NCBI GenBank assembly: GCA_938045545.1
Contig: CALIBN010000007.1
Coordinates: 16,073-80,072, forward strand
Reading direction: 5' to 3'
Length of the DNA: 64,000 bases
Source: an uncultured archaeon
GTDB taxonomy: Archaea > Thermoproteota > EX4484-205 > JAAOZP01
A program made the translations under genes and the position numbers. Positions 11,591 through 59,326 of the stretch are shown here, one piece after another. Position 1 is the first letter of the stretch. Each line of letters opens with the position of its first letter. The notes under the pieces were generated by a model that searched no databases, was not told where the DNA came from, and saw only the letters and a list, made by a program, of their open reading frames with translations.

Positions 11591-11591
11591 C

Positions 11592-36236: not shown

Positions 36237-37508
36237 TTACGACTCAGCGTATTGCTTGATTCTGATTCGATACGTCAGTAAAGCTAAAGCCAAGAGTATA
36301 GCAGTCGAGGAAAATATCTTAACAGAGTCGAGAATCAGGGTCTCGGCAAAAGTTTCGAACACGAGTATCCTGCGGCTGGTCTCAATACTCCAGGCTGGGG
36401 GAAAGATTACAGCCAGCAATCTTACGGGTTGAGGCATCCATTCCAAGGGAAACCAGATCCCGGTGGTAAAACTGAGAAGAAGGCCGAGGACGGTACCCAT
36501 GCCTGAAGCACCTCTCACCGTTTTTGATAGCAGTGAGACTAGTGCTCCGATGCTCATGCTCATCAGGGCTCCGCAGACCATGAAGGCAACAGCTAGAAGG
36601 TGTATCGGATTCAACGGGTCTAAAACGATGCGTGCCCCCACAGCTGGAGAGACTCCTACAAGTATCAGTATCAATGCGGATATTAGTAGAGTCGTTAGTT
36701 GAGATAGGAAGCTTCCAACCAGAAACTCTCCTTCAGTAAGCGGGGTTGAGAAAAGCTTCCTAAGAGTCCCCCTCTCCTTCTCGGAGACTACGAGTATCGC
36801 GCCGCTGTTAAACCCGAAGTAGAGGAACATCATGCCTATTGCTTCAATCGTATACCAGCCCAGTGTTCTCACACGATCTTCAAAGAACTCTGGCGATACG
36901 TGGTCAACAGTTAAGTCTAATGGTCGCATGATGCCTTGTACAGTAGCGTTAAACCACAGTTTCTCCTCCTCTGAGATAGGCAGCCATTTGATTATGTTCA
37001 CCGCGTTTTCAACCATCTTAAACGAGACTCCTTCAGAGAACCTTTCGAGAAAGCCTATTATTATTGAGGAAGATATTTGTGCAGACTCGGGGGTTCTTGA
37101 ACCAACGTATGCGTGAAGCCTCGCTTTCTCAACCGGATTGATTACAGCGTAGCCGAATCCTTCAGGCACAACTATTACGCCGTCAAGCTCACCTCTCCTC
37201 AAAGCCCGTAACGCTTCCTCCTCAGATTGATATAATTTTACGTTAAACAGCTTTGAATCGTTATACTCTGCCTCCTCCAAGATCTTAATTAAAGACGAGC
37301 CGTTAAGCGGTGTTTGAGAGCTGTCTAAGTTTACAATCCCAAGGTTAAGCACTATTGTTCCCCCGTCACCGGTCGGCGGCACGAAAATGTATGCAGTCAT
37401 GAAGATCCATATCAGCGGCCATGCTACAAGCCAGAAAACAAACGTCTTATCTCTAGTCATCAGCTTTAAATCACGAATGATGAATGAAACCATTGGTTTT
37501 ATTCTCAT
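36237..37508 (-). CDS. ABC-2-type transporter permease with a large extracytoplasmic N-terminal domain
   Basis: N-terminal TM, then a ~200-aa loop, then six C-terminal TM helices. It overlaps the ATPase gene by 4 nt. Confidence 0.6.
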   Translation of the reverse strand: MRIKPMVSFIIRDLKLMTRDKTFVFWLVAWPLIWIFMTAYIFVPPTGDGGTIVLNLGIVNLDSSQTPLNGSSLIKILEEAEYNDSKLFNVKLYQSEEEALRALRRGELDGVIVVPEGFGYAVINPVEKARLHAYVGSRTPESAQISSSIIIGFLERFSEGVSFKMVENAVNIIKWLPISEEEKLWFNATVQGIMRPLDLTVDHVSPEFFEDRVRTLGWYTIEAIGMMFLYFGFNSGAILVVSEKERGTLRKLFSTPLTEGEFLVGSFLSQLTTLLISALILILVGVSPAVGARIVLDPLNPIHLLAVAFMVCGALMSMSIGALVSLLSKTVRGASGMGTVLGLLLSFTTGIWFPLEWMPQPVRLLAVIFPPAWSIETSRRILVFETFAETLILDSVKIFSSTAILLALALLTYRIRIKQYAES

Positions 37509-38458
37509 TCCTCCAGCCTCCTTCCGGTTAGCTTTAGAAAAACATCTTCAAGCGTAGGCTTGACTACGCTTACACTCAACATCCTTACTCTTTTCTCACC
37601 GAGGATTAGTATGGTCTTAGGCAGATCCTCGTCGGGGTCGTCAGTATGAACATGTACTTCGCCGTTACAACTATAAACGTTTCCCCAACGGCTCTTTAAA
37701 ACAGCAGAAGCATTCTCGACTTGTTCAGGAACGGGCTTAATCACTAGCACAGCTGGCGGGGCATAGAGTTTTTTAAGCTCCTCAGCACTGCCCTCCGCGA
37801 TTAACTTACCCTTGTCTATTATTGCAACCCTGTTTGCAAGTCCTTCTGCCTCGTCAACAAGATGAGTCGCCATGAGGATGGTAACTCTGTTTGAAACTTT
37901 TTTGCGTAGCAATTCTAGGACGCTTCTGCGCATAGCCGGGTCTAAAGCTGTAGTCGGCTCATCAAGTATCAGCAGCTCAGCCTCAATGGCTAGGGATAGT
38001 ATGATTGAAGCGAGTTTCATCTGCCCCGTTGACAGTTTGGAAGAGAGCCTGGTTGCTAACTCCTGAACACCCAATTTTTCAAAAAGCCACTTAGCCTCCT
38101 GCCGGACAGTATTCCTGTTGAAACCGTATAACGATGCGTAGAAATCAACATTCTCCATTACTGTTAGCCAAGGGTATAATGGTGGAGTCGCTGGAAGATA
38201 GGAGATTTTTAAACGCGTTGACGGATCGAAAGGACTACCCCCAAGAACCCTAATGCTTCCAGACGTCGGCTTCATAACGCCAGCTATAATGTTGAACAAC
38301 GTTGACTTGCCTGCACCATTCGGCCCTATGAAAACGTATACCTCGCTAGGCCTAACCGTGAAGCTGACCGCGTCCAGCGCGACGACACTGTTATATGATT
38401 TAGAAATCCCTTGAGCAGCAACCACTTCCTGCCCCATGATTCTATCACATTTTTTCAA
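37505..38458 (-). CDS. ABC transporter ATP-binding protein (ABC-2/DrrA-like)
   Basis: Walker A GPNGAGKST, signature LSTGQMKLAS and Walker B LLILDEPTTALD. Length is 317 aa. Confidence 0.85.
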   Translation of the reverse strand: MKKCDRIMGQEVVAAQGISKSYNSVVALDAVSFTVRPSEVYVFIGPNGAGKSTLFNIIAGVMKPTSGSIRVLGGSPFDPSTRLKISYLPATPPLYPWLTVMENVDFYASLYGFNRNTVRQEAKWLFEKLGVQELATRLSSKLSTGQMKLASIILSLAIEAELLILDEPTTALDPAMRRSVLELLRKKVSNRVTILMATHLVDEAEGLANRVAIIDKGKLIAEGSAEELKKLYAPPAVLVIKPVPEQVENASAVLKSRWGNVYSCNGEVHVHTDDPDEDLPKTILILGEKRVRMLSVSVVKPTLEDVFLKLTGRRLEE

Positions 38459-45196: not shown

Positions 45197-46327
45197 ATGA
45201 TTCGTCGGATGTGGGTTCTCAGAAGCGATGCGGTAACCGTGTGGAACAATAAGGATGTTCAGAAAAGGCTCTCATGGTATAGGGCTGTTATGAAAAACCT
45301 TAAACCAGCCAAATTCCTAATAGCTAAAAGCATCCCGGCACAGGTCGGGGTTAAGGATTTAGAGAACATGAAGGAGGAGGAGCTCTGGAGGCTTCATGAA
45401 AAGCTTAGCTTAGAGTTCAGGAGAATCCATGAGTCTGTGAAGACAGGTAAGGCTGGTGAGACCACTCCTGCAGAAGTAAGCTTCCTAGATGTAAAGATAA
45501 TGCTCTCTGAAAGACTTGTTGAACACTGCGAGTTTTGCGAGAGAAGGTGCAGAGTGAACCGGAGGAGGGGGGAGCAAGGGTTCTGCAGAGTAGGGTTTGT
45601 AAGCAGGGTTTCAACATGGTTCCACCACTTCGGGGAGGAGGGACCGTTAATAGGCGAGGGAGGCTCTGGAACAATATTCTTCGCAGGCTGCAACCTCGGG
45701 CCTTGCGTCTACTGTCAGAACTGGGATATCTCTTCAGATCCTGGGAACGGGGGCGAGGTTAATCCGAGAACACTGGCGCTAATCAGCAGGAGGCTTAGTG
45801 CCGAGAATGCTGCAAACATAAACTACGTGGGGGGAGACCCGACGCCGAATCTCCATACAATACTCTCATCCCTTAAACATTTGGATGTAAACATTCCGCA
45901 GCTCTGGAACAGCAACATGTATTGCAGCACTGAGGCTATGAGGCTTCTCGCTGAAGTCATAGACATATGGCTACCGGACTTCAAGTATGGCAGCGACGAA
46001 TGCGCCAGAAGGCTTTCAAAGGTGGAAAAATATTTCGAAGTGGTGGCGAGAAACCACAGGATTGCCTACGAGAACGGCGATATGATAATAAGACACCTGG
46101 TTCTTCCTAACCATCTAGAGTGTTGCACCAAGCCTGTTTTAAAATGGATATCTGAAAACACTCCTAACGTTCTCGTGAACATAATGGGCCAGTATCATCC
46201 GGATTACTTGGTGGCGAGAAACCCTGGAGCGTATCCAGATATCGCTAGAAGGCCTAGTGCGAGAGAGATGCAGGAAGCCTATGATTACGCGAGAAGGCTT
46301 AACATAGTTTTCGAACCGGTGTCCTAG
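45197..46327 (+). CDS. PflA-like radical SAM protein with an N-terminal Cys cluster and an atypical Cx4Cx2C SAM-cluster motif
   Basis: N-terminal HCEFCERRCRVNRRRGEQGFCRV is the auxiliary Cys motif of the PFL-AE-like 'AmmeMemoRadiSam-type' enzymes. The radical SAM core is FFAGCNLGPCVYCQNW. Length is 376 aa. Confidence 0.65.
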   Translation: MIRRMWVLRSDAVTVWNNKDVQKRLSWYRAVMKNLKPAKFLIAKSIPAQVGVKDLENMKEEELWRLHEKLSLEFRRIHESVKTGKAGETTPAEVSFLDVKIMLSERLVEHCEFCERRCRVNRRRGEQGFCRVGFVSRVSTWFHHFGEEGPLIGEGGSGTIFFAGCNLGPCVYCQNWDISSDPGNGGEVNPRTLALISRRLSAENAANINYVGGDPTPNLHTILSSLKHLDVNIPQLWNSNMYCSTEAMRLLAEVIDIWLPDFKYGSDECARRLSKVEKYFEVVARNHRIAYENGDMIIRHLVLPNHLECCTKPVLKWISENTPNVLVNIMGQYHPDYLVARNPGAYPDIARRPSAREMQEAYDYARRLNIVFEPVS

Positions 46328-47250
46328 CTAACCCGGTTATCCCAATATGGTTTTTTCAACATAATTGCCTCAATAAACCTCCTTTTTAAATCATCATCGC
46401 CGCCGCCTGAACGCATTAACCCCACTATGTCCACCAAATTATCGTTTCTCAACAAGCAGGGCTTCAGCCTCCCGTCGCAAGTAACCCTGAGCTTAGAGCA
46501 GTGGGAGCAGAAGTCAGGGTTCCCAGTGGGCGAGACTATTTCGACTAGAACCGTCCTTCCGTTTCTGGGGAGCATGTAGATGGGGCGTTGTCCAGTGTAG
46601 TTGACAGTTTTCCCGGCTGATTTTGAGGAGATGGTTTTTTCAACATACTTAAGGCTGACGTGAAACTCTTGGAAAACCTTCTCACCACCCGGAATCGGCT
46701 GGAGCTCTATGAGCTGGAGAACAGCCCCAATGGAGCCAGCGTAATCCAGCATCTTTTCAACATCCTCTTCGTTAACCCCTTTCAGAACAACCATATTTAT
46801 CTTAACAGGGTTTAGGCCACTCTCTAATGCAGCATTTATCCCTTTGAAAACCCTTGAAACATCCCCGCCACCAGTTATCAGGCTGTACTTTGAAGAATCG
46901 AGACTAGGAAGGTTAACGTTAACTCTTGCTAGTCCCGCGTCCTTAAGATCCCCAGCGTATTTTTCAAGGAGGACACCGTTTGTAACGAGCGAAACCTCCC
47001 TGACGAGCGGGGAGATCGCTTTCACCATGTCGACAACGTCTTCTCTAACCAGTGGTTCTCCACCGGTTATCTTAACAGTTTCAACGCCTATGCTGCTAGC
47101 GACCTCGACGATTTTTCTAACCTCGTTTAAAGCCATGCTTCTCCTAGGAGGAGGGTTCCATTCCCTGTGGCAGAAGAAGCAATTAAGGTTGCAGTTCTCC
47201 GTAACGGATATCCTGAGGTTTTTCAATGGCCCTTCGGCCTGTTGAAACAT
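46324..47250 (-). CDS. moaA: GTP 3',8-cyclase MoaA
   Basis: N-terminal LRISVTENCNLNCFFCHREW radical SAM motif. MoaA C-terminal region with CSHCSKLRVTCDGRLKPCL. Length is 308 aa. Confidence 0.8.
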   Translation of the reverse strand: MFQQAEGPLKNLRISVTENCNLNCFFCHREWNPPPRRSMALNEVRKIVEVASSIGVETVKITGGEPLVREDVVDMVKAISPLVREVSLVTNGVLLEKYAGDLKDAGLARVNVNLPSLDSSKYSLITGGGDVSRVFKGINAALESGLNPVKINMVVLKGVNEEDVEKMLDYAGSIGAVLQLIELQPIPGGEKVFQEFHVSLKYVEKTISSKSAGKTVNYTGQRPIYMLPRNGRTVLVEIVSPTGNPDFCSHCSKLRVTCDGRLKPCLLRNDNLVDIVGLMRSGGGDDDLKRRFIEAIMLKKPYWDNRVS

Positions 47251-47431: not shown

Positions 47432-49414
47432 TTGAGTGAGACGAAAACAGTCTCCGTCATAGAAGAGTTAAAAGCAGGTTTCACCGTTAAAGCAATAATC
47501 CTCGCAATAGTCTTCGGAATAATAGGGCTCTTCGCAAACATAGCTACTTGGTGGGGCCTAGGGATAAGCTTAGAACCTGTTTTTGCAGGCAGAGTAGGGG
47601 CACCAATATACCCACCATACGGGCTCGTTTTCATACTTATTCTTGTAAGTCTGTTCATAAAGGCTTTGACGATCCAGGAGATCGCGGTGATCACTACAAT
47701 AGCGTTCATAACTGCAGACAGCCCGTTCGTCATCGGCGCTTTCCTACAATTCATATTTGCAGGAACCTACTTGGTTAAGACCAACCCCAACGTAGAGGCC
47801 CTGCTAAAGTATTACCCGCCGCTGTGGACCCCGGGCGACTATGACCTGATCGCCCCCGCTTGGGCGGGAAGGGCAGCTGTACCATTGGGCAGGTTGCTCC
47901 CATACCTAGCGTTCTGGATGATAATTATAATCATTTGGTGTCTAATGATGGTTTTCCAGGCCGCGTTAATCAGGCTGCAGCTGATTAAAAAAGAGAGGCT
48001 CCCATTCCCAATGATGATTCCGATTAACGAGATGCTTTCACAGCATCAGAAGGGAACCTTTACGCAATACATGAAGAAGCTTCCATTCATAGCAGGGGTA
48101 ATACTGGGATGCATAATAGGTATACTAGGGGCTTTAAACTATATTATTAAATTCACGACGGTGTTCTTCGCCTTCGGACAGTTCTACCAGCAATGGTTCG
48201 CCGACCTTATGAGCTCGATCTCTCAAAACACGATACAATCCTGGTGGATGTTCATACCCGCGGATGCTGCAATCATGTACCTTGCCCCCTTGGACATTCT
48301 TTCCTCAATAGTCATCTGGCTGTTCATCTTCCAAATCCTGTTCCCACTGGTCCTCGTCAACACTGGGGTGATAACGCCCAACACTAACCCGGCTGGTACA
48401 GGCCCGTTCCCATGGCTAAACTTCAGCTACTACTGGGCCCCGTTGGCGATAGGCATCTGGACAATAGTCTTCGGCTACAAGACTTATGCTGAGAGCTTGA
48501 AGAAGAAGGAGTTTGCCCCGGGCGAACTCCCAAATTCACTCGTATGGTACGGCTTCGCAGCCACATGGCTTCTCTGGCTCATCCTATGGGTCATATTCGG
48601 AGCCAACGTTCTCCCGTTGCTAGTGGGCTTCATCGTGTGGTTCCTGTATACGACGGGTATGGTTGCTGTCTGCGGGGCAACAGGTACCTGGGTAGCTGGA
48701 GGAGACGCTGTTCCGGCGAGATTCTTAGCGTGGGGAGTAGGCACTGGAATAGGCCTGTTCCCAGCAAGCGGTGCGGCTGCTAAAACTCAATCCGCGTGGG
48801 CAACGATGGCCGGCGTCAGCATAACTGCCAGCATGGGTGGAGTGATTCATCAGAACACGCATTCCGCTTGGGCCTACACGTCAACCTACACGATGGTTGA
48901 ACCCGCTAAGGTGAAGGAAACAGACATTCTAAAGTCGCACATCCTAGGAATACTTATAACGGTGCTTATCGGTGTTCCAGTTGCCGTCTACATAATCTAC
49001 GGGACTGGAATAGGCCAGCTGAAGGCCTGGGGCCTCGGCAGCGGTGCAAACATCACCGGCTTCCAAGTGCCATGGGTAGTGGCTGATGCAGCGCCTCCTG
49101 CAGGCTTCCACTGGTGGATGTTCCCACTGGCTATAGTCGTGGTCGGCATCTTGTTCTTCCTGAGGGCTAGGTTCGCATGGTTCTTCTTCAGCCCGTATGC
49201 GTTATTCTTCTACTCTGGAATGTGGCTGATAAACGCCGGGGTAGCGTGGATACTTAAACTCATAACGCTTAAAGTATTCGGAGCGAAGGCCTACGAAGAG
49301 GTTGGAGTACCCGTAGCAATAGGCTTCATGGTTGGTGTCACTCTCATGGCTACGATAATCATGGGAGTGAACTCTGCTACCGGAGGAATATCAGTAGGAC
49401 CGACAGGCTATTAG
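47432..49414 (+). CDS. Polytopic membrane protein (about 14–16 TM), unknown family; paralog of 54082..56001
   Basis: 660 aa, highly hydrophobic. It shares an E(R/K)LPFP motif (KKERLPFPMMIPINEM) and overall architecture with 54082..56001. TTG start, with a TATA-like ctttataagtt about 33–44 nt upstream. Confidence 0.5.
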   Translation: MSETKTVSVIEELKAGFTVKAIILAIVFGIIGLFANIATWWGLGISLEPVFAGRVGAPIYPPYGLVFILILVSLFIKALTIQEIAVITTIAFITADSPFVIGAFLQFIFAGTYLVKTNPNVEALLKYYPPLWTPGDYDLIAPAWAGRAAVPLGRLLPYLAFWMIIIIIWCLMMVFQAALIRLQLIKKERLPFPMMIPINEMLSQHQKGTFTQYMKKLPFIAGVILGCIIGILGALNYIIKFTTVFFAFGQFYQQWFADLMSSISQNTIQSWWMFIPADAAIMYLAPLDILSSIVIWLFIFQILFPLVLVNTGVITPNTNPAGTGPFPWLNFSYYWAPLAIGIWTIVFGYKTYAESLKKKEFAPGELPNSLVWYGFAATWLLWLILWVIFGANVLPLLVGFIVWFLYTTGMVAVCGATGTWVAGGDAVPARFLAWGVGTGIGLFPASGAAAKTQSAWATMAGVSITASMGGVIHQNTHSAWAYTSTYTMVEPAKVKETDILKSHILGILITVLIGVPVAVYIIYGTGIGQLKAWGLGSGANITGFQVPWVVADAAPPAGFHWWMFPLAIVVVGILFFLRARFAWFFFSPYALFFYSGMWLINAGVAWILKLITLKVFGAKAYEEVGVPVAIGFMVGVTLMATIIMGVNSATGGISVGPTGY

Positions 49415-49564
49415 ATCCAAACCCTCTTTTTTTTGAGCCACGGCTTAGTTGCTTCCATGTCAGCTTAAGCCTCCTTATCGTTACCCTTGAGGACATGAGC
49501 TTCCTTTTAAAGAGGGGTTTTAACGACGTAAAGTTTAAATCAATCTCGGTGGAGTTCCACGTTA

Positions 49565-52500
49565 ATGATAATAGTCCAAAGAAAATATTTGCTTGTTGCT
49601 GTGTTTTTAACGATGCTTGTTGTCCCTCTCTTAGCAATACGGGGGAGTCGGGAGGCTGTTGAAGAAAAAACCTGGTTAAACCAGGAAGCCCCGTTGGTTT
49701 CAGCTGACAGGATAAGAGACTATGTGGCGTTGTTTTCATCAATACAGTCAAGGTTCACAGGCTACCCGGGCTCTCTCCAAGCAGCCAGAATCATAATGGA
49801 CAAGTTTAACGAATCTGACCTGAATGTTAGCCTTTTCAACTACACGGTGCTGGTCCCGTATGACTCCGGCTCATACATGAAGGTGGGTGGAAGAGTGATT
49901 AAGGCTTATGCTCTCTACCCTAATGTTGTAGCCACGGGTTTGAAAAAGGCTTCCGGAAAGCTTGTCTACGCGGGCCACGGTACTCCGGAGGAGCTTAGGG
50001 GACTTGACGTGAATGGTAACATAGTCCTCCTTGAGTTTAACTCCGGGTCTGCATGGGTAGACATGGTTAAGCTGGGCGCCTCCGGCATCGTTTTCCTAGA
50101 GGACGGTGACACGAATCGCTTCGAAGCATTGAGAAAAATCTCCTCTGTCCCACTGAATACTCCAAGAATATACGTAGCAGGCCAGGAAGCGTCTCAGCTC
50201 AGAGAAATCGCTAAAAACAATCCGGTTGCAGAGCTCGTTAACGGTATGGAGTGGAGAGAAGTTGAGGCTGTTAACGTGATTGGGGAAATGAAGGGTGTTG
50301 AAGACCCGTCTAAAGTAATTATTATAACGGCGAACTATGACTCCGGGTCGATTGTACCAGGGGTCGCTCCGGGGGCTGATGAAGCCATAGGTATTTCTGT
50401 CATGCTTGAATTCATCAGATCTTTGAAGCATCAGGGCCTCTCGCCGAGATACACAGTTCTTTTTATAGCGATGTCTGGACATTGGCAGGCCCTAGCCGGT
50501 GCTAGAAGCTTCGTGGAACAATTCTACTTTAACAATTCCGCGATAGGCAGGGAAGTCTTCCCGTATCTCGTCATAGACATTAAGATCAGCTCAGGAAGCC
50601 CGCACTTAAACCTTGTTTACAGCGGCATGATGTACTCCATCAATACTCAGTATATTGCAAGCAGGTTCAGAGACCTCCGAATATTTTTTGCAAATTCAAT
50701 TAAATCTTTCATTCAATCTTTCCCAAGCTATAGCGAAAAGGTTTTAACGAGCAACCTGTATCCTGGTCTATACGGCATTGCATACGACTCGGCTAGTCCC
50801 GGTTTTCAGAAGGGCCTTGCCTTCAAGCATATTCTCGAAATGGAGCCTTTTGAGCTGGCTAACAGCATTGGGCTCGGAATAATTACTTTCGACGACTTCA
50901 GGTATCGCGTTTTCACCCCGTCTGACAGGCTGGAGTTCATCGATTTCCAGAACGTCATACCTCAAGCACAGCTAACATTCCAGATCCTGTTCGACCTGTT
51001 GAAGGCTCCGGTTGAAGAATGGTATCCAGGCAGTTGGGAGGGTTTAAGACCGTTAAGAATGGGTGAAACCTACACTGGAGTTGGTTTCACTGTATTAAAG
51101 GTTGAAGTGGTTGAATACGACCCGACTACGCCAGGCCTATACAGCCCGGTTCCAAAAGCTTTCGTCACAGTGGGGAGCACGTTGGACCCATTCACGCTGA
51201 TGTTTTCTAAATCAGATTCTTCAGGCTTCGCGGTGTTCAGGGGTTTAAGGCCATATCCTGAGGCGACGACCGCGTTGCAAACCCCTATTCAGAGCTACGT
51301 GATCGACGAGGAGGGGAGAATAATCTACGCCCCAGACAGGGGGCAGCATGGTGCCGGAACATATCCTTCAAGCGTAACGATAGTCTCACCTGAACAATTC
51401 ACGAGGAACGTTGTGTTTAAATGCGGGAGCGCCGTCATGTTCGATTTAACCGACCCGGACACTCTGCAGGCTGCAGTCTCTCCAAGCTCGATGTTTGGAA
51501 CCACGAATGCTTATTCGGCACAGCTCAGGAATTACGGTGGCTACGAGACCCCGCTAACGATAAGCGTGATGATGATGCAGATACCTGGATACTCTATTCT
51601 AGACTCGTTCGGCTACGAGTTCGACCCCATTCTGTCGGTTGCACAGGTTTACGCCCCGCCCCGCATCAGGTTCGGCTTCGTTGTTAAAAGCACGTCTATG
51701 GCTAAAACGGTTGCAGTCTATACGAATGTGACTCTGCAGAACCAGGATGGGTACGGGTATTATTTGGGTAAAGAGGGGGACAGGCTGCTCGTAAAGGGTG
51801 GAATACCCGGCATGTTCATGGAGATGTTGACATTAGCATATGGCAGGTATTTGGCTCAAGCAGATATTCAAGTTCTGGACCCAAAGACGATGGAGAATTT
51901 GAATTATGCGATAATGTTTAACCAGACGCTTCTTCAGACGGCTTCGAAAAAGGATTACAGCGGGTTCTTGACGAGCGCTTTAATGGCTTGGGGGTTCTCC
52001 AGCAAGGCTTACCAAAGCTCTTTGAGCGTTGTACGCGACGCGGTTACGAGCATAATTCTCGTATTCGCTTTAGCAATACCCTTCATCCTTCTGTTTTCCT
52101 CCCTGGTTTACAATTTGAGCAGCGGCTTTAGAAGCGTCGCCCTTACTCTTGCTGTGGCGCTGTCCGTGGCGTTGCTTTTAACAGTATTCCACCCGGGTTT
52201 CGGGCTAGCGGTAAACGTGCCTGCAATATTCATAGGGACGCTGATAGTTGCCCTGGTTATTCCAGTGATGTTCTTCCTGTTCTCCAACTTCTCTACAGGG
52301 CTTTCCAGGCTGAGGAGAGAAGTTCTTGGTGCGCACTTCCTTGAGAGAAGCGGATTCGACGTTTCGTTTTCAGCCGTATCCATAGGAATAGGCAACTTGA
52401 AGAAGCGTAAGTTTAGAACAGTATTAACGATGCTGTGCATAGTAATCATAAGCTTCTCGCTTTCGTCTCTGACTTCCGTGACGGAGATAAGGGCTTTAAG

Positions 52501-54082
52501 AGTTACCCCAACGCCCACCGAGGTAACTTACAACGGGGTGCTGCTGAGAACAGCCAACTTCGTCCCTTTAAACAGGAAGTTGATCGACCTAGTGTCAACC
52601 TACATATCTGGCAAGACACTTTATGCTCCGAGGTACTGGGTTTATCTTCCTTCCACTCCTGGAGAGGGGACTGCTGGCACAATAGTAATATCCTCTGAGA
52701 AAAGCAAGGCTTTGATCTACGCGGCTGTCGGAATAAGCCCTGTAGAGTTGAAAGCATCGTTCAAGCAGGTTGAAAAAATACTTTTAGAAGGATCCATGTT
52801 TAAAGAGGAAGAGGTTTTCTCAGCATTATTGCCGAACAGCCTTGCGGAAAGCCTTAAGGTGAAGACAGGCGAATACGTCTGGGTTAACGGCTTCCGCTTA
52901 AGAGTAGCAGGCATACTCAACACGACCGCAATTCTAGCATATGTGAAAGATTCAGATGGTTTCGTGGACGTCCTGCCCATGGACACGTATATTCTTTCGA
53001 ACGAGAGAACTCCTCCCCGTGCTGAGGCAGCGTTGAGCCCAGGATCCGTAATATTCGTGCCCGCCGGCCTGGTTGAATTGATTCCGGAGGCATGCTTGAC
53101 AAGCGTTTTCATACCGGCAGACGGGATGGTGTTCGAGGAACTTTACGAGAAGTGCGGCGAGGTTTTCTCCGCTTTCGAAGGTTTAAACATTTATCTGACG
53201 TATAACGGCACTGTCTACCGGTTCTCCAAGGAGAACGTTATCTCGCTATTCGGCTTCCAGTTCATTCTAATACCCATGATCATCGCGGGGCTGATAACTA
53301 TGTCGACGATCCTAGGCGGAGTCATGGAGAGAATACGTGAGGGCTACATATATAGCAGTCTAGGCCTAGCACCGGTTCAAGTAGGCTTAATGTTCTTCGG
53401 GGAGAACATCATATACGCTATCGTAGGCTCGATGACAGGCTATCTCGGCGGCATCTCAGCCTCATACTTGACGAGGAAAATAGGCTTGATAAACCTCCCT
53501 GTGAACTACACGTCGTCATTCGTCATGATAGCTGTCGGTCTGGTGATAGTGCTGGTTCTGGCAGCGTCGCTCTACCCGTTCTACAGAGTCTCCGTCACAG
53601 TAACCCCGTCGCTAGAGAGGAAGTGGCGTCTCCAGACTAAGCCGAAGGGAGACTCGTGGGACATACCGATACCTTTCCGTATAAAGGAGGATGATAGGGC
53701 CGCAGGAATGGCTGTTTTCCTCCATGAGTATCTCTGGAATAAGAGGATAGAGAGGGCAGGAGTCTTCTCCATTGAAAACGTTGAGGTCAGCAAGATAGAG
53801 TCTGGGATTGGTATTAAGTCAAGAGTCTGGCTGGCACCATTCGAGCAGAACATAAAGCAGGATATGAACATAGTGATATTGAAGAGCAAGACAGAGCAGA
53901 ATTTCCTTATTTTAATGAATCTAACCAGGGTGTCCGGACCCTACGACTCATGGGTCAGGTTCAACTATCCCTTTATTGATGAGATAAGGAAGCAAATGCT
54001 GATATGGAACGTTCTCAATCCAGAGGAGCGGGAGAAATACATACGTATGGCTAGGGAGCGTAGCCTAGTAGGTGAGAAATAA
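49565..54082 (+). CDS. Giant (1505-aa) membrane protein: signal-anchor TM + ~760-aa extracytoplasmic PA/M28-peptidase-like (degenerate) region + tandem FtsX-like permease TM modules + ~180-aa cytoplasmic tail
   Basis: N-terminal TM LLVAVFLTMLVVPLLAI. M28-like segment IIITANYDSGS…GADEAIGISVMLEF…SGHWQALAGARSF, in which the canonical H-x-D, D-D and E-E residues are replaced. FtsX/MacB-like TM signatures: KKRKFRTVLTMLCIVIISFSLSS (TM1-like) and LIPMIIAGLITMSTILGGVMERIREGYIYSSLGLAPVQVGLMFFGENIIYAIVGSMTGYLGG (TM2–4-like). An earlier three-TM block is consistent with a first FtsX-like half. Confidence 0.55.
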   Translation: MIIVQRKYLLVAVFLTMLVVPLLAIRGSREAVEEKTWLNQEAPLVSADRIRDYVALFSSIQSRFTGYPGSLQAARIIMDKFNESDLNVSLFNYTVLVPYDSGSYMKVGGRVIKAYALYPNVVATGLKKASGKLVYAGHGTPEELRGLDVNGNIVLLEFNSGSAWVDMVKLGASGIVFLEDGDTNRFEALRKISSVPLNTPRIYVAGQEASQLREIAKNNPVAELVNGMEWREVEAVNVIGEMKGVEDPSKVIIITANYDSGSIVPGVAPGADEAIGISVMLEFIRSLKHQGLSPRYTVLFIAMSGHWQALAGARSFVEQFYFNNSAIGREVFPYLVIDIKISSGSPHLNLVYSGMMYSINTQYIASRFRDLRIFFANSIKSFIQSFPSYSEKVLTSNLYPGLYGIAYDSASPGFQKGLAFKHILEMEPFELANSIGLGIITFDDFRYRVFTPSDRLEFIDFQNVIPQAQLTFQILFDLLKAPVEEWYPGSWEGLRPLRMGETYTGVGFTVLKVEVVEYDPTTPGLYSPVPKAFVTVGSTLDPFTLMFSKSDSSGFAVFRGLRPYPEATTALQTPIQSYVIDEEGRIIYAPDRGQHGAGTYPSSVTIVSPEQFTRNVVFKCGSAVMFDLTDPDTLQAAVSPSSMFGTTNAYSAQLRNYGGYETPLTISVMMMQIPGYSILDSFGYEFDPILSVAQVYAPPRIRFGFVVKSTSMAKTVAVYTNVTLQNQDGYGYYLGKEGDRLLVKGGIPGMFMEMLTLAYGRYLAQADIQVLDPKTMENLNYAIMFNQTLLQTASKKDYSGFLTSALMAWGFSSKAYQSSLSVVRDAVTSIILVFALAIPFILLFSSLVYNLSSGFRSVALTLAVALSVALLLTVFHPGFGLAVNVPAIFIGTLIVALVIPVMFFLFSNFSTGLSRLRREVLGAHFLERSGFDVSFSAVSIGIGNLKKRKFRTVLTMLCIVIISFSLSSLTSVTEIRALRVTPTPTEVTYNGVLLRTANFVPLNRKLIDLVSTYISGKTLYAPRYWVYLPSTPGEGTAGTIVISSEKSKALIYAAVGISPVELKASFKQVEKILLEGSMFKEEEVFSALLPNSLAESLKVKTGEYVWVNGFRLRVAGILNTTAILAYVKDSDGFVDVLPMDTYILSNERTPPRAEAALSPGSVIFVPAGLVELIPEACLTSVFIPADGMVFEELYEKCGEVFSAFEGLNIYLTYNGTVYRFSKENVISLFGFQFILIPMIIAGLITMSTILGGVMERIREGYIYSSLGLAPVQVGLMFFGENIIYAIVGSMTGYLGGISASYLTRKIGLINLPVNYTSSFVMIAVGLVIVLVLAASLYPFYRVSVTVTPSLERKWRLQTKPKGDSWDIPIPFRIKEDDRAAGMAVFLHEYLWNKRIERAGVFSIENVEVSKIESGIGIKSRVWLAPFEQNIKQDMNIVILKSKTEQNFLILMNLTRVSGPYDSWVRFNYPFIDEIRKQMLIWNVLNPEEREKYIRMARERSLVGEK

Positions 54083-56001
54083 TGGAAGAGGCTGCACGTG
54101 AAAAAGAAGCTTTCATCCCTGGGCTGACAATCGTATCGGTCTCCGCAGTATTGTTCGGGCTTGTGGTAATCGTGCCCGCAATAATCTATTTAGGCTGGGC
54201 CGTCGGCTCTTTAGGTGGGACCGAGAGGTTCATCCCGGTTTTCGTCACAATCCTCCTATTCACCGAGGCGGGGAGGCTCGTTAAGAGGTATATAACATCG
54301 CAGGAGGCTTACATAATATACTTCATGCTTCAAGCCATAGCCCTATGGTTCGTCGGCGGAGGAATGTTCGGCGATTTCCTTATAAGGTATTACTACAGGT
54401 CCGCCCCTTACACTATCCTATACGGTATCGCTGAAAAGCTTCCCACATGGTATGTCCCTGAGCTCGGGAGCTACGGCCCACTCCACAGGACTTTCCTCTC
54501 CCCAGACTGGGTGATTCCGATATCGATTTCTCTAGCTGTTAACGTTTGCGTGCTGATGATAGATTACGGTGTTTCTTTCATAACAAACATGCTCTACATA
54601 GAGATAGAGAAGCTCCCATTCCCCGTCGCACCCATAGACTACCAGGCGATTTCAACCCTTACTGAGAGAACACCTGAGAAAATAATGTACTTCTCTTTCG
54701 CCGCTGTGATAAGCTTCATCTACGAGTTCGCCATCTATGGGATTCCAAACATAACCTCGATTTTCCTAGGCAGGGCTATAACCGTCATACCGTATCCCTG
54801 GGTGGACTTAACCACGGGGATTGAAAGAATCCTGCCAGGAGCCGTTTTTGCAGTCGGAACTGATATTGCTCAATACATGGTGGGCTGGCTTATCCCGTTT
54901 AACGCCGCGGTATGGATGTTCATCGGGTCGGTGGCAGTCTGGGTTTTCGGAAACTCTATAGCGCTCAGGATTGACCATCCCTACTTCAGCATGTGGCAGA
55001 GAGAATGGACTTACGGCGCGTCAATCCAATGGTGGTGGCAGAGAGCAATCTACGACCTGTGGGCAAGTCCACAAGTAGGTTTAACACTCGGGATCGCGCT
55101 TGGAATACTTGCTGTAGGAGCCAAAAACATTGCGCGAGCAATCCTCTCCCTCAGACATCTTTCGGCAGAGCAGCTTAAAACATCATACTTGCCTTTCAGC
55201 TGGATAGTTGCTTTAATCGCCGCCGGGTCTATAGGCGGGTTGCTTGTTTCAGTCTCCCTTGCCCCAGAACTATGGTTCGTCTGGGTGGTGACCTGGACGA
55301 TAGTTCCGTTTATTCAAGGTATTCTGACAGCCAGGGCCACTGCTGAAACCGGGTTATCTGTCACCATACCCTACATTAGGGAGGCGTTCTTCGTTTCTTT
55401 CACAAGGCCTGGAGACGTGGTCCCGTGGGTGGTTCCGACTCATGTGACAAGTAGCGCCGGGATAATTACGCACAGGGTCTACGTGGCTAAGCTCCTGAAA
55501 GTCAGGCCCCTGGACTACTACAAGGCCTACCTCATATTCTTCATAGTAGCTATTCTCCTATCCCTGCTGTACGTTTCAATATTCTGGGCGATGACACCCA
55601 TACCTTCTGCCTTCTACCCCTACGCCAGCTACTCCTGGCCTATTTCAGCCCTCTACTTCTCCCTATGGGTCTCCAGGTCGATCGAGATTTTCAAGGTGGA
55701 CGTGATAGCTATCTCAAGCGTCTTATCCTTCATAATGGTCGTCGTCTCCTCCCGTTTCCCAACGCAATACTTCTCCCCAATAGGCTTCCTATACGGTTTT
55801 CAAAACATTCCCGCTTACACGCTTCCACCGTTGATCGGAGCCCTGATCGGAAAATGGCTTGAGAGGAGAATGGGTAAGGATAAATGGGTGGTGCGGAGAG
55901 GAGTGATAATCGCCGGAACATTCTGCGGGATCGCGCTTGCAGTAGCAGCCGCTGTCGCCGTCACTATAATGGGGAGAGCGATAACAGCTAAACCTTTCTA
56001 G
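54082..56001 (+). CDS. Polytopic membrane protein (about 14 TM), unknown family; paralog of 47432..49414
   Basis: 639 aa. Its start overlaps the stop of the 1505-aa gene (ATAATGG). It shares IEKLPFPVAPIDYQA with the upstream paralog. Confidence 0.5.
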   Translation: MEEAAREKEAFIPGLTIVSVSAVLFGLVVIVPAIIYLGWAVGSLGGTERFIPVFVTILLFTEAGRLVKRYITSQEAYIIYFMLQAIALWFVGGGMFGDFLIRYYYRSAPYTILYGIAEKLPTWYVPELGSYGPLHRTFLSPDWVIPISISLAVNVCVLMIDYGVSFITNMLYIEIEKLPFPVAPIDYQAISTLTERTPEKIMYFSFAAVISFIYEFAIYGIPNITSIFLGRAITVIPYPWVDLTTGIERILPGAVFAVGTDIAQYMVGWLIPFNAAVWMFIGSVAVWVFGNSIALRIDHPYFSMWQREWTYGASIQWWWQRAIYDLWASPQVGLTLGIALGILAVGAKNIARAILSLRHLSAEQLKTSYLPFSWIVALIAAGSIGGLLVSVSLAPELWFVWVVTWTIVPFIQGILTARATAETGLSVTIPYIREAFFVSFTRPGDVVPWVVPTHVTSSAGIITHRVYVAKLLKVRPLDYYKAYLIFFIVAILLSLLYVSIFWAMTPIPSAFYPYASYSWPISALYFSLWVSRSIEIFKVDVIAISSVLSFIMVVVSSRFPTQYFSPIGFLYGFQNIPAYTLPPLIGALIGKWLERRMGKDKWVVRRGVIIAGTFCGIALAVAAAVAVTIMGRAITAKPF

Positions 56002-56003
56002 AG

Positions 56004-57053
56004 TTAGCGGCTGTGCTTATTTCCTTTTAGCGCGCCTATCTCGGAAGTATAGAGAATTAGTCGGTCTACCTCCGTGCTCCATCCAAGCTCCCTGGTGTGA
56101 TTCGGATCCACCGCCTCAACCCATATTAGCCACCTGTCGCCCCTTATCTTGTCGAATAAGGCTTGAGCATAGGTGTGAATCGGGTACTCGGCGTGTTCGA
56201 AACGTGAAAGCGGCGTCCAAACTTTTTCGAAAATAGTTTCTAGATTAAGCCTTCCTAAATCAATACTGTAGGCGACAAAATGTTTGGTAAGCGCGTTTCC
56301 CCTTATCACGTCCAGCGTTTTCGTGCCGATGAAAATCAGACCCGTTGAGCCTGGGATTATTGAGCCGCTGAGCAGGAAGAAGTCTGGTTGACTCTTGCCG
56401 TCAACAGTAGGTACTCCAAGCTTAACCCAGTTCTTCCCATCGCTACCGACAGCCAACGCCGTCTTCACGATGCTTGTGCCCGCCCTCCTAGCCTTGTAGA
56501 GGCAGAAGTATCTGCCATCAACTATGTCTATAGTGGCGTCTCTCGATTCTCCACTGTCGTATTCCTCGCTTCCTCTGATTACGAAGCCTTCAGGCTCCCA
56601 TGGGCCGGAAGGGTCTTCCGAAGTAAGTAGGAAGGTTTCCCACCTGCTCTCTGTGAAAGCCTTCCCCTCGACAACCAAGTTCTCCCTTGAAACATTCAGC
56701 GAAAGATAAAGATGGTATCTCCCAGTCAAAGGGTCTTTTAAAAGCTGCTGGTTCTCTATGCTTAGAATCTGGTTTTCCGTCATCTTGCTCAACTCTTCCT
56801 TAGTAATCCATGTTACCAGACCATAATTCTCACCGTCCTTCGACCTGTATATTTCCACAGCGTACCCTCTCTTCATTTCCCTCATCTCCCTGGGCCTACT
56901 CGTCAACCAGTATTCCCTATTCTCCTCATCGATCCACATTTTTCCAGCGCCGCACCAAGAGCCAGGGTTGAAATTGGGAGGGTCGAGGAGCACCTTGTTA
57001 AACCTTCTTTTGGAGAAGATGGCTTGAGGCGGGTATAGGCCATACCAGCTCAT
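56004..57053 (-). CDS. Beta-propeller glycosidase-like protein with BNR-type SxDxGxxW motifs (cytoplasmic)
   Basis: Motifs SKDGENYG, SEDPSGPW and GSDGKNWVK. Length is 349 aa. No signal peptide. Confidence 0.4.
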   Translation of the reverse strand: MSWYGLYPPQAIFSKRRFNKVLLDPPNFNPGSWCGAGKMWIDEENREYWLTSRPREMREMKRGYAVEIYRSKDGENYGLVTWITKEELSKMTENQILSIENQQLLKDPLTGRYHLYLSLNVSRENLVVEGKAFTESRWETFLLTSEDPSGPWEPEGFVIRGSEEYDSGESRDATIDIVDGRYFCLYKARRAGTSIVKTALAVGSDGKNWVKLGVPTVDGKSQPDFFLLSGSIIPGSTGLIFIGTKTLDVIRGNALTKHFVAYSIDLGRLNLETIFEKVWTPLSRFEHAEYPIHTYAQALFDKIRGDRWLIWVEAVDPNHTRELGWSTEVDRLILYTSEIGALKGNKHSR

Positions 57054-57107: not shown

Positions 57108-58084
57108 CTATATTGCGGCTCGTAGTCTTTTCCACTCGTCTATGAAAGCCTGAACATTCTCCCATGGCCACTGCTCGCGGATAGAGGGTACTGCGTGAAG
57201 AATAAAGCCTCTTCGGCCGAAAACTTGGAAAGCATTCTGAACTGCTTTACGCACAGTCTCCAGCTTCCCCTGGCCTATTTGGATGGGTGCGCTAACACCC
57301 CCCAGATACACTTTCTACCGCCAAGCTTCTAAGCCACGATCCTCATGTCTTGGTTTCCAAGAGCCGGCTCGATGCCGTCATAAGCGTCGAAAGGGAGTTC
57401 AGCCAAATAGTCTAATATGGGCATCACGCCTGTGCAAACCGTGTAGCTGCAAACCCTGCCGGCGGAATGTGCCAGCTCAGCCTCCTCTCGCAACCTTTCC
57501 CCCAAAAAGGTTTGTAGCTGCCTAGGGCTCCAGAAATCCGTGGTCTCGTAGAAGCCGTTGCGGCGCACAATGTCCACACCATTTTCGACCAAGGCTCTAG
57601 CCTTCACCATTCTTTTCTGAAAGGCTTCAACCTCCCGCCTTCCTGGAGGCATGTGCACATAAGCCCAGCGCTTAACATCCTCCATGTTTTCAAGCCAAGG
57701 CTTAACGAAGCGGGAAACGTAAGTCTGAGAGTAGCGGTATTTCCATGCCATGTGGCCAATCAGGGGTTCTCCTTACAGCGGCGGTAAGAGGCACGGCGGG
57801 CGTCGTGATCCCTCGTGAAGAATGGGATAGGGCTCACCCGGTGTCTCCCAAACCCTAAAAGATACTTCAGGATGCTGGCCCGCTGGAACATCCAAGGGTA
57901 TAACAGGGTCGATGCCTAGCTCCTCTGCTTGTAACCGGAGTGCTTGCTCACCATAGGGATCTTGCTGTTGCCAGTCCCTATACTTACCAGGCTCAACCTG
58001 GGGCTCGCTGAAAAAAGTTGAGAGCGACACATAGTCCACATCCCCTCGGCGCATAGCTACTATCACGCGTTCACGAGAGTTCAT
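57108..58084 (-). pseudogene. Disrupted URO-D-family (MtaA-like) methyltransferase pseudogene in three ORF fragments
   Basis: The N-terminal fragment 57773..58084 (SRERVIVAMRRGDVDYVS…), middle fragment 57329..57751 (…YDGIEPALGNQDMRIVA) and C-terminal fragment 57108..57311 are colinear with the intact paralog 61635..62732. They are separated by frame changes and a stop. Confidence 0.55.
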
Positions 58085-58195: not shown

Positions 58196-59326
58196 TTAGA
58201 ATATGTCTTCCGCGTAGGCTACACCTGCCGCATGTATGCCCCATTCTCGATATTTTAAGCATGTGGCTGAGTAATAAGCCGTATAGATGGTTCCGTCATC
58301 AAGCTGGACACTACTTGGGTATCCGCAGTCAGCGTCTGTCGCATAAGAGACTAAGGCGGCTCTCCTGTTAAACATCCATGATCGGCCGCCGTCGAGGCTT
58401 ATCACCGCATGAACCCCGTAAGGTACCTTCCGGTGTCCAAAGGTTAGCAAAACCTTCCCGCTCTTAAGGTAACAAAGGTCCCCGGGGTGTTCACCGCCAC
58501 CAGTCACCTGTTTAGGCTCAGACCATGTGTAACCCATGTCTCGAGAGCGACTGATGGCAACGCATTCGCCGCCACCCTGAGCATGGGGTCCGCGGAGGGC
58601 TGCCAACAAGTCTCCATCGGGTAATTGTAGAAGAGCGGTTTCATTATATCCTTTAGCGACGATGGTTAAATCCTTCCATGTGAAACCATTGTCCTCGGAG
58701 CGTAGAATATAGCTGGTCTCTATCGAGCCTTCTAAAGTATATTCTTGAGAGTAAACAGACATAAGAATAGTTCCATCATCCGTCTGAAGCATTCTCCCAT
58801 AGGGTGAAACCGCCCCTTTAAACGGAAACTCCAGCGGCTCTGGCTTACTCCACTCCCTACCACCGTTGGTCGACCTCGTTACGAACATTTGCCACCTCAT
58901 CCCATTCCTCTTCCACAACCCATTCTCATAACCCCAGACTCTTGCAAAGGCAACCAGCAGAGTACCGTCCTTCAATTGACATAGCGCCGGATTCCTATCG
59001 TCAGTCTGAGAAACAGTTACGATTCTTGGCATTGTCCATGTCTTACCCCCGTCTTTAGATAACGAGAGTTCCAAGCGGCCTCGTTGACCAACATGGTAAT
59101 CCCCCATGCGGAAGACAACCGCTAGGTTTCCGTCACGGAGTTTAGTCAAAACCGGGAAATATCCACCCATAGGAGTTATAAGATATCTTCTAACCCGCTT
59201 AAGGGAACCAACCATCGCCTCATCGCAAAACTGCATTCCATACTCGAACTCCTCATCGGCTTTCATGTTTTTCCACGGCCCACCGTTTTTCCATATGCGG
59301 GCATTCTTATTAATTTTGATGTTCAT
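58196..59326 (-). CDS. BNR-repeat sialidase-like beta-propeller protein (cytoplasmic)
   Basis: Motifs SKDGGKTW, STNGGREW, SEDNGFTW, SRDMGYTW and SLDGGRSW. Length is 376 aa. No signal peptide. Confidence 0.65.
   Translation of the reverse strand: MNIKINKNARIWKNGGPWKNMKADEEFEYGMQFCDEAMVGSLKRVRRYLITPMGGYFPVLTKLRDGNLAVVFRMGDYHVGQRGRLELSLSKDGGKTWTMPRIVTVSQTDDRNPALCQLKDGTLLVAFARVWGYENGLWKRNGMRWQMFVTRSTNGGREWSKPEPLEFPFKGAVSPYGRMLQTDDGTILMSVYSQEYTLEGSIETSYILRSEDNGFTWKDLTIVAKGYNETALLQLPDGDLLAALRGPHAQGGGECVAISRSRDMGYTWSEPKQVTGGGEHPGDLCYLKSGKVLLTFGHRKVPYGVHAVISLDGGRSWMFNRRAALVSYATDADCGYPSSVQLDDGTIYTAYYSATCLKYREWGIHAAGVAYAEDIF

Follow-up and report, generated by a model that had tools for sequence, protein, structure and literature searches.

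A conserved archaeal gene module encodes two OPT/YSL-like paralogs and a giant FtsX/MacB-type permease whose M28-like ectodomain is degenerate

Type VII ABC mechanotransmission systems, including MacB, LolCDE, FtsEX, HrtBA and YtrEF, are among the closest described counterparts of the gene module reported here, together with the large single-polypeptide FtsX-family permeases of BceAB and of E. coli YbbAP-TesA, a type VII system tied to a hydrolase-fold extracytoplasmic component (PMC12646458). A second line of comparison comes from the OPT/YSL transporters (barley YS1, fungal and plant OPTs). Their characterised members are importers (PMC3061005, PMC9691689), YS1 works as a homodimer by an elevator mechanism (PMC9691689), and the prokaryotic members, predicted to import peptides, were biochemically uncharacterised as of a 2011 review (PMC3061005). 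The PA-M28 aminopeptidases (2ek8 and B. subtilis YwaD) and their relatives nicalin, nicastrin and transferrin receptor (TfR), which have lost catalytic residues, provide a further reference. We found no description of a system that combines these elements in the literature searched.

The locus lies on a Candidatus Brockarchaeota contig, in a 64-kb stretch of DNA that was analysed as a whole (hereafter the window), and comprises three real, conserved genes. P1 (47432..49414, +) encodes a 660-aa polytopic membrane protein with a TTG start, P2 (49565..54082, +) a giant permease of the FtsX/MacB type (1505 aa) that bears a pseudo-aminopeptidase ectodomain, and P3 (54082..56001, +) a 639-aa OPT/YSL-fold transporter-like protein. 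An earlier note on this DNA had seen two paralogs bracketing a tandem-FtsX/M28 fusion on the same strand, with a start/stop overlap at 54082; its ORFs, the paralogy, the P2 domains and the missing neighbouring ATPase all held up, whereas the tandem FtsX arrangement was not confirmed and the idea that the paralogs belong to no family proved wrong. The TAA of P2 overlaps the ATG of P3 (TAATG, 54080..54084, +), an arrangement indicative of translational coupling, and the P2–P3 junction is similarly tight (-19 to +29 nt) in most archaeal loci.

To place the locus in a wider context, we compared P2-type genes among GTDB species representatives, which hold 218 such loci. Among the 39 archaeal loci with enough flanking sequence, an OPT-like gene lies within 3 kb of the P2 homologue in 35 and both paralogs are present in 32, demonstrating that the proposed three-gene unit is syntenic across related genomes and supporting the earlier suggestion that the flanking paralogs are conserved partners of P2. 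The order and orientation of the genes vary among archaeal loci. P2 and the OPT-like gene also stay together in 8 of 10 bacterial loci. DUF6785, the family of P1, occurs in the archaeal modules and is absent from these 10 bacterial loci, which carry an ATPase and a mini-FtsX instead. Several genomes contain two to four divergent copies of the module (for example, L029, L034, L036 and L080 in MAG JAWBXL01). Together, these observations support the view that P1, P2 and P3 form a conserved functional unit.

Both flanking proteins are polytopic, as had been noted, judging from hydropathy and a helical model. They share a motif at equivalent positions, ERLPFP in P1 (residues 188–193, 47993..48010, +; E188, F192 and P193 invariant in the family) and EKLPFP in P3 (residues 176–181, 54607..54624, +), which is the most conserved motif of both families. 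Pairwise BLASTP of P1 against P3 gave no significant similarity (E 0.4); hhalign comparison of the two family profiles, however, gave a match over the full length (probability 98.3%, E 1.9e-14), so the paralogy claimed earlier is real, and at the profile level P1 and P3 are true but very distant paralogs. P1 matches Pfam DUF6785 (PF20581; E 5.6e-13, 48.7 bits against a gathering cutoff of 25), as do 18 of 18 P1 relatives. Neither P1, P3 nor any of these 18 relatives matches Pfam OPT (PF03169), which is matched by 11 of 30 P3 relatives at E<=0.01 (best 3.5e-17).

We then asked which known fold the P3 structure model (pLDDT 90, pTM 0.89) resembles. Among PDB folds, Foldseek found a single significant match, barley YS1 (HvYS1, 7wst; E 4e-10, probability 1.0), with superposition over ~670 columns at a TM score of 0.65–0.69, indicating that P3, as modelled, has the OPT/YSL transporter fold. 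P1 can be placed in the OPT/YSL superfamily indirectly, through its sequence homology to the P3 family. Both proteins have the size of OPT/YSL members (~640–660 aa), and the presence of two paralogs per module matches the working of YS1 as a dimer. They depart from known OPT/YSL proteins, however: their genes accompany those of ABC components, Pfam lists P1 under DUF6785/DUF6784, and P3 is only 14–15% identical to HvYS1. P1 and P3 lack the eukaryotic OPT motifs NPG and KIPPR (as cited in PMC3061005); NPG is found in 2 of 18 P1 relatives and 1 of 30 P3 relatives, and KIPPR in none of either set. The earlier note had recognised no characterised family for the pair, which is incorrect; the OPT match that it named as an argument against its own proposal exists at the level of fold and superfamily, although P1 and P3 are not ordinary close members. 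The searched literature yielded no experimental study of a prokaryotic member of either family.

P2 begins with a predicted hydrophobic anchor or signal peptide (residues 1–29, 49565..49651, +, from hydropathy), followed by a PA and M28-like domain (residues ~41–480, 49685..51004, +) and by beta-rich extracytoplasmic domains (residues ~490–745, 51032..51799, +) assigned from model secondary structure (model residues 25–260). Pfam Peptidase_M28 matches only the N-terminal half of its domain (residues 237–319, 39.5 bits against a cutoff of 21.3), and the P2 family profile matches the PA-M28 aminopeptidases 2ek8 (E 7e-29) and YwaD (E 1e-20), which, like P2, have a PA domain inserted in the M28 fold. 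The catalytic AEE of 2ek8 aligns to GHW of P2. Of 33 family members, 30 have His (H306) in place of the general-base Glu, the others Arg or Phe and none Glu; the metal-binding second-site Glu is Trp (W307) in 26, Tyr, Phe or Asn in 6 and Glu in 1. Most members retain His257, Asp272 and Asp340, which, judging from the Aeromonas aminopeptidase active site, would form one of two zinc sites. In the window's P2, the first ligand His is additionally replaced by N257 and Asp by K340, leaving a vestigial site (N257, H306, W307, K340), and a D/E-x-E motif (E425-M-E427) replaces the last zinc-ligand His. The full M28 set (catalytic Glu and zinc ligands H, D, E, D, H) is thus not intact in P2, and a strongly conserved motif, SGHWQALAGAR, occupies the former active site. 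The degenerate PA/M28-like ectodomain reported earlier is therefore confirmed. Because catalytic residues are lost as in nicalin, nicastrin and TfR, a binding role is suggested by analogy; unlike these relatives, the P2 lineage is prokaryotic, and its domain is fused to an ABC permease and carries SGHWQALAGAR.

The canonical MacB/FtsX unit of P2 spans residues 930–1346 (52352..53602, +) and consists of an amphipathic helix, TM1, a periplasmic core domain and TM2–4. It contains the single Pfam FtsX match (PF02687, residues 1233–1343), the family profile matches MacB (E 1e-15), and the core domain between TM1 and TM2 is of the MacB_PCD type (Porter/Sabre). The structural neighbours of this MacB-type fold are YtrF, HrtB, LolC/E, MacB and YbbP. 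Between TM2 and TM3 lies the coupling-helix motif ERIREGYIYSSLGLAP (residues 1255–1270, 53327..53374, +), the expected ATPase docking site, in which E1255, G1267 and P1270 are invariant and R1256 and E1259 at least 90% conserved among archaeal P2 proteins. Upstream, a bundle of three TM helices that includes a stalk helix (residues ~798–921, 51956..52327, +; model helices H314–364, H371–397 and H401–437) has FtsX-like topology in the structure model. The cytoplasmic TM2–TM3 loop of this bundle is only ~6 residues long in the model, so it would lack a coupling helix, and hhalign of residues 795–915 against 1225–1350 found no similarity (probability 0.2%). The MacB/FtsX unit and the M28-like region of the proposed fusion are both present, but a second FtsX unit is not detectable by sequence. 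A family-specific cytoplasmic alpha/beta domain (residues 1347–1505, 53603..54079, +; beta-alpha-beta4-alpha2 in the model) completes the protein. This domain has no Pfam match and is found in at least 1311 cluster representatives (50% identity), always at the C-terminus of ~1450–1550-aa proteins where matches are full length. Our results support reading P2 as a type VII ABC permease of the MacB/FtsX type whose M28-like ectodomain is degenerate.

Like MacB, LolCDE, FtsEX, HrtBA and YtrEF, P2 thus has one complete FtsX unit including the coupling helix. It differs from these systems in its ~800-residue N-terminal ectodomain (PA/M28-like and beta domains), an extra 1+3 TM anchor and a unique ~150-aa cytoplasmic C-terminal domain, and in the module's obligate neighbourhood with OPT-like transporters. 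As in YbbAP-TesA and BceAB, the permease is a large single polypeptide with more than four TM helices, although YbbP and BceB have two recognisable FtsX units and 10 TM helices, compared with one unit and 8 helices in P2. The hydrolase-like domain of P2, unlike that of YbbAP-TesA, is fused and catalytically degenerate, and neither YbbAP nor BceAB has a known OPT partner.

No ABC ATPase gene adjoins the module, as the earlier note stated; the nearest (37505..38458) belongs to the DrrA type and is paired with an ABC-2 permease of its own, and the 64-kb window contains neither a LolD-type ATPase nor a mini-FtsX. Among the 39 archaeal loci, only one has a LolD-type ATPase within 3 kb. Homologous operons elsewhere do carry the LolD/MacB/FtsE-type ATPase expected of type VII ABC systems. 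The bacterial order is miniFtsX-ATPase-P2-OPT-like, and a metagenomic five-gene operon (L147) reads miniFtsX-ATPase-DUF6785-P2-OPT-like on one strand; a further locus (L159) likewise unites ATPase, mini-FtsX and DUF6785 in one operon. On a 1.47-Mb archaeal contig (Ga0315312_1000004), DUF6785-P2-P3 lies at 857–877 kb and a miniFtsX+ATPase pair at 1,255–1,272 kb, ~390 kb away. In view of these loci, the missing ATPase is no peculiarity of the mechanism; in this and most archaeal genomes its gene is presumably unlinked from the module, in contrast to known type VII systems. The mini-FtsX is ~205 aa long and, also unlike known type VII permeases, essentially without an ectodomain; the pairing of two different FtsX proteins in a heterodimer has a precedent in LolC/LolE. 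The coupling motif ERxRE..SSLGLAP is common to P2, its ATPase-linked bacterial and L147 homologues, and the mini-FtsX.

We tentatively favour, at somewhat short of an even chance, a type VII ABC mechanotransmission system that is energised in trans, coupled to OPT-like transporters and probably captures and imports an oligomeric nutrient. With its single canonical FtsX unit and coupling helix, P2 would most likely draw its power from a LolD-type ATPase dimer acting with a mini-FtsX, a pair presumably encoded elsewhere in this genome and possibly common to paralogous modules. ATP-driven mechanotransmission would move the large extracytoplasmic assembly of P2, comprising a catalytically dead domain for binding that derives from PA/M28, the beta-sandwich domains and the periplasmic core domain of MacB type. 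P1 and P3 would act as divergent OPT/YSL-type elevator transporters, probably as a heterodimer by analogy with homodimeric YS1, and the ectodomain may capture the extracellular substrate and hand it over to this pair, in a physical complex, for uptake. The presence of multiple divergent copies per genome fits substrate-specific nutrient systems. A mechanotransmission module acting on the envelope or S-layer had been proposed earlier; the type VII ABC permease stands, but we found nothing pointing to the S-layer or to envelope remodelling. A more specific version, which we regard as possible but doubtful, is a hybrid primary/secondary machine in which a heterodimeric type VII ABC motor of mini-FtsX and giant P2 mechanically gates or loads an OPT-family elevator dimer.

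Export or extraction is an unlikely alternative, in which the OPT-like pair would move a cytoplasmically synthesised or membrane-embedded compound to the outer face and the type VII part would extract or expel it. This scheme is modelled on MacAB, LolCDE, HrtBA and YbbAP-TesA, with the pseudo-M28 ectodomain as receiver or chaperone. To our knowledge, every type VII ABC system characterised so far works outward or at the outer leaflet and none imports, which favours export and counts against uptake; the structural neighbours of P2 argue in the same direction, and weak START/Bet v1-like and KA1-like fold matches of P2, possibly from its C-terminal domain, hint at lipid or hydrophobic ligands. 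However, the OPT/YSL proteins so far characterised work as importers, several divergent copies per genome would be unusual for a housekeeping envelope machine, and the module has no conserved biosynthetic neighbours.

That the archaeal variant dispenses with an ATPase, with P2 serving proton-driven OPT-like transporters as a static receptor or scaffold and DUF6785 standing in for ATPase and mini-FtsX, we judge improbable. The lack of an adjacent LolD-type ATPase in 38 of 39 well-flanked archaeal loci and the distribution of DUF6785 against ATPase and mini-FtsX are consistent with it, but the coupling-helix residues of archaeal P2 vary little or not at all and match those of ATPase-linked homologues in type, L147 and L159 carry all three components in one operon, and on the 1.47-Mb archaeal contig the module coexists with an unlinked miniFtsX+ATPase pair. 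Co-localised, co-regulated genes with independent functions and no complex would account for the few lineages whose P2 gene has no OPT-like neighbour (L037, L039, L043, L046, L048 and L066); this is quite improbable given that adjacency survives many rearrangements (in Thermoproteota, Bathyarchaeia, Brockarchaeota, Armatimonadota and others) and that the P2–P3 stop/start overlap is conserved. An active exopeptidase that trims extracellular peptides for import by the OPT-like proteins is very improbable, since the loss of the general-base Glu in all 33 members and of the second-site Glu in all but one, with N257 and K340 in the window's P2, outweighs the retained His257, Asp272 and Asp340 of most members and the frequent proximity of OPT genes to peptidases (PMC3061005).

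These assignments bring DUF6785/DUF6784 and an unannotated partner family into the OPT/YSL superfamily, place a large ~1500-aa "FtsX-like permease / M28 peptidase" family in a defined multi-gene system and give an entry point to the prokaryotic OPT homologues. Should P2 and its OPT-like partners form one machine, mechanotransmission would reach beyond efflux, lipoprotein extraction and hydrolase activation; the hybrid machine, if true, would mark the first time that type VII mechanotransmission serves import and the first case of an OPT transporter with accessory subunits of its own, in a system widespread among TACK archaea and Armatimonadota-like bacteria. In Bathyarchaeia, Brockarchaeota and Thermofilales-type archaea, groups seen as important in breaking down detrital polymers, the module occurs frequently and in multiple copies, so it could serve as a significant route of nutrient acquisition and may bear on carbon cycling. 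Given the two protein families, the parsimonious guess would be a peptide-like substrate, but it is a weak one because one P2 homologue has a discoidin-type carbohydrate-binding insertion, and a glycan is also possible. Among the immediate neighbours over 105 module flanks there are no peptidases, and the commonest are GFO/IDH/MocA oxidoreductases (9), accompanied by some sugar-related enzymes, a pattern that counts against the favoured reading.

An open-reading-frame reading of the window recovered the three genes as an earlier note had described them: P1 (47432..49414, +; 660 aa, TTG start), P2 (49565..54082, +; 1505 aa) and P3 (54082..56001, +; 639 aa), with the P2 stop and P3 start overlapping in TAATG. 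Each has dozens of homologues, at identities from >90% down to ~25%, and P1, P2 and P3 are real genes. The window, at 97% protein identity to MAG GD2_1, belongs to a Candidatus Brockarchaeota genome. We scanned GTDB species representatives for P2, using as query an alignment of 10 closer sequences and not the 33-sequence set, and found 218 loci, the best 80 of which were searched with local HMMs for synteny counts. An OPT-like partner lies within 3 kb in 35 of the 39 archaeal loci with sufficient flank, both paralogs are present in 32 and neither in 4, and a single locus has a LolD-type ATPase within 3 kb. Among the 10 bacterial loci (Armatimonadota, Latescibacterota and others; sufficient flank in only 2), 8 have an OPT-like partner, none has both paralogs (no DUF6785), 2 have neither, and 7 have a LolD-type ATPase within 5 kb. 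The tight P2-P3 junction is conserved, and several single MAGs carry 2-4 divergent modules. Gene order and orientation vary (P1-P2-P3, P2-P3-P1, divergent) while adjacency is maintained, which is strong evidence that the three genes are functionally coupled.

The earlier note took P1 and P3 for polytopic paralogs of no recognisable family. Hydropathy and the P3 model bear out their polytopic nature. Pairwise BLASTP of P1 against P3 was not significant (E 0.4), the sole aligned piece being the E(R/K)LPFP motif. Comparing profiles of the P1 family (A1, 18 sequences) and the P3 family (A2, 30 sequences) by hhalign gave a probability of 98.3% (E 1.9e-14) over the full lengths, and E(R/K)LPFP is the most conserved element of both families; because of this full-length match and shared motif the paralogy is correct, though ancient (~18% identity). 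The lack of a family, by contrast, was wrong. P1 matches Pfam DUF6785, as do 18/18 of its relatives, and P3 has an OPT/YSL fold: P3 itself has no Pfam match, 11/30 of its relatives match Pfam OPT (best E 3.5e-17), NCBI names some of them 'OPT/YSL family transporter', and a confident AlphaFold model (pLDDT 90, pTM 0.89) has as its single significant solved fold the OPT/YSL transporter barley Yellow Stripe 1 (YS1; E 4e-10, TM 0.65-0.69, ~670 columns). Searching PDB sequences with either family profile returned no match even at E 10, and neither protein contains NPG or KIPPR, motifs of eukaryotic OPTs. Given the DUF6785 and OPT matches, the YS1 fold and the missing eukaryotic motifs, we place P1 and P3 in the OPT/YSL superfamily, where they form divergent branches and are not ordinary members. 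YS1 works as a homodimer and is a proton symporter of the elevator type (PMC9691689); prokaryotic OPTs, biochemically uncharacterised as of a 2011 review, are mostly predicted peptide importers (PMC3061005).

P2 carries Pfam FtsX at residues 1233-1343. In a model of residues 485-1505 (pLDDT 81.6, pTM 0.72), beta-rich ectodomains come first, then a stalk and three TM helices. An amphipathic helix, TM1 and a periplasmic core domain of alpha/beta type follow, after which TM2 leads through a coupling helix to TM3 and TM4; a ~150-aa cytoplasmic alpha/beta domain ends the chain. Of the tandem FtsX arrangement proposed previously, one unit stands; the second is unconfirmed, since the first TM bundle shows no FtsX similarity in an internal-repeat test (hhalign probability 0.2%) and has a modelled cytoplasmic loop of only ~6 residues at the place of the coupling helix. 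P2 offers one canonical ATPase-docking site. Its C-terminal domain is family-specific (1311 cluster representatives at 50% identity), forming the C-terminus of ~1450-1550-aa proteins among full-length matches; Pfam scans of this domain and of small neighbouring ORFs gave no match. At the other end, residues 237-319 match only the N-terminal half of Pfam Peptidase_M28, and the family profile matches the PA+M28 aminopeptidase 2ek8 (E 7e-29, residues 41-328), as well as YwaD, nicalin and the transferrin receptor. In the profile alignment the catalytic 'AEE' of 2ek8 falls on 'GHW': the general-base Glu is replaced by His306 in 30/33 family members and a metal-binding Glu by Trp307 in 26/33, and the window's P2 has Asn257 at the first zinc-binding His and Lys340 at an Asp ligand. 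These replacements confirm the M28 region as degenerate. The strong conservation of the replacement motif, SGHWQALAGAR, suggests a putative binding site retained at the former active site.

The absence of an adjacent ABC ATPase was likewise borne out, with neither a LolD-type ATPase nor a mini-FtsX (a small FtsX protein with next to no ectodomain) found within the window. The nearest stand-alone ATPase (37505..38458) was rejected as the P2 partner: it is DrrA-type with its own adjacent ABC-2 permease, the two genes together covering 36237-38458 (-), and is not of the LolD type used elsewhere by the P2 family. Three consecutive fused ABC exporter genes (9788-16234, -) are also not LolD-type. 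ATPases at bacterial P2 loci are LolD/MacB/FtsE-type, and a close relative lies 2.1 kb upstream of P2 in the Bathyarchaeia locus L020. Using the L020 ATPase as query for a metagenome contig scan and searching the flanks of its matches, we found similar ATPases almost always paired with a mini-FtsX (~205-240 aa; Pfam FtsX at 1e-17 to 1e-21) with four TM helices, roughly a dozen residues in its outer loop and a canonical coupling helix, SVTERYKEIG. The order in bacterial four-gene operons, such as that of the Armatimonadota L078 type, is miniFtsX-ATPase-P2-OPT-like, and locus L147 has miniFtsX-ATPase-DUF6785/DUF6784-P2-OPT-like on a single strand. On the 1.47-Mb contig Ga0315312_1000004, DUF6785-P2-P3 lies at 857-877 kb and a miniFtsX+ATPase pair at 1,255-1,272 kb, so module and pair can be unlinked within one genome. 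The pair is widespread (L084-L163; for example L110 7319-8675, with a ~205-aa FtsX essentially devoid of ectodomain), often as an orphan and sometimes beside ~1000-aa FtsX proteins (L121 8668-11670; L134, L140, L141, L143, L153).

The reading of P2 with the best support is that of a mechanotransmission permease of the type VII ABC class. The one FtsX unit of P2 would join either mini-FtsX, forming a heterodimer like LolC/LolE, or a second P2, and would sit on a dimer of a LolD-type ATPase whose gene lies in trans; ATP hydrolysis would move the large ectodomain with its pseudo-peptidase. P1 and P3, both OPT-like, are the conserved partner. They probably form a heterodimer, as judged from dimeric YS1, and possibly a homodimer takes their place in bacteria; the ectodomain would capture an oligomeric nutrient and hand it over for uptake. 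We infer this uptake role, on mixed evidence, because each of the two partner families descends from proteins that handle peptides, the OPT/YSL members characterised so far are importers, and the modules occur in multiple divergent copies, as nutrient systems do. A census of 105 module-flanking proteins turned up neither peptidases nor any further partner that is conserved; sugar-type oxidoreductases were modestly in excess. In the L147 P2 homologue (10806-15656), an F5/8 type C (discoidin, galactose-binding-like) domain is inserted after the M28-like region, a hint that some members bind glycans. The window module is itself flanked by a GH2 beta-mannosidase-like gene (40626-43097), a weak GH43-like gene (56004-57053) and a BNR/sialidase-like gene (58196-59326), a layout resembling a polysaccharide-utilisation neighbourhood. 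With these features and no peptidase neighbours, the substrate could be glycan-derived.

A machine for export or extraction, like MacB, LolCDE or YbbAP-TesA (PMC12646458), would share the permease type, and we consider it unlikely beside importing OPT/YSL relatives. An ATPase-independent archaeal variant would fit the scarcity of linked ATPases in archaea; it is quite doubtful, as P2 in the window keeps the coupling motif ERIREGYIYSSLGLAP, as in ATPase-linked homologues. Mere co-regulation of the genes with no complex would fit the few lineages whose P2 has no OPT-like neighbour, and is improbable set against the conserved tight P2-P3 junction and adjacency that survives rearrangement. A still-active M28 peptidase is highly improbable with its catalytic residues replaced. 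Each component of the preferred mechanotransmission module falls in a known superfamily; the combination of mini-FtsX, a giant FtsX whose ectodomain is a PA/M28 pseudo-enzyme and whose C-terminal domain is unique, and conserved OPT-like partners appears undescribed, and literature searches for DUF6785, DUF6784 and the FtsX+M28+archaea architecture found no relevant paper.

Other features accompany the modules. A Caldarchaeales-like P2 clade (L037, L039, L043, L046, L048, L066) has no OPT-like or DUF6785 neighbours, and its P2 is followed by conserved proteins of 339 aa (weak Yip1 match) and 297 aa. Some modules (L051 6860-9898, L054 11146-14181, L055 9322-12345) encode an extra FtsX protein of ~1010 aa, its gene lying between those for the OPT-like and DUF6785 proteins; the one scanned, from L051, has CarboxypepD_reg and MacB_PCD domains. 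A 376-aa radical-SAM gene (45197-46327, +) is a recurrent neighbour, adjoining the module in 8 loci (for example L002 9586-10641 and L018 7220-8272), including distant relatives at ~35% P2 identity. Two more radical-SAM genes lie at 43234-44811 and 46324-47250 (the latter MoaA-like), and an ArsR/DUF7347 regulator at 59464-60312. A scan for sigma-70 promoters and intrinsic terminators, which does not apply to archaea, scored at chance level. Two adjacent ORF fragments, 57329-57751 (-) and 57773-58084 (-), probably reflect decay of a gene or a frameshift. The first is similar to a URO-D/MtaA-like protein whose gene is intact in L042 (5821-7011); the second is tied to that family only via the genes of the close Brockarchaeota relatives L004, L008 and L011, which are fragmentary too. 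tblastn did not reproduce a proposed match of 57329-58084 to a URO-D gene intact in L005; the similarity is to L042 and the fragmentary genes of the relatives.
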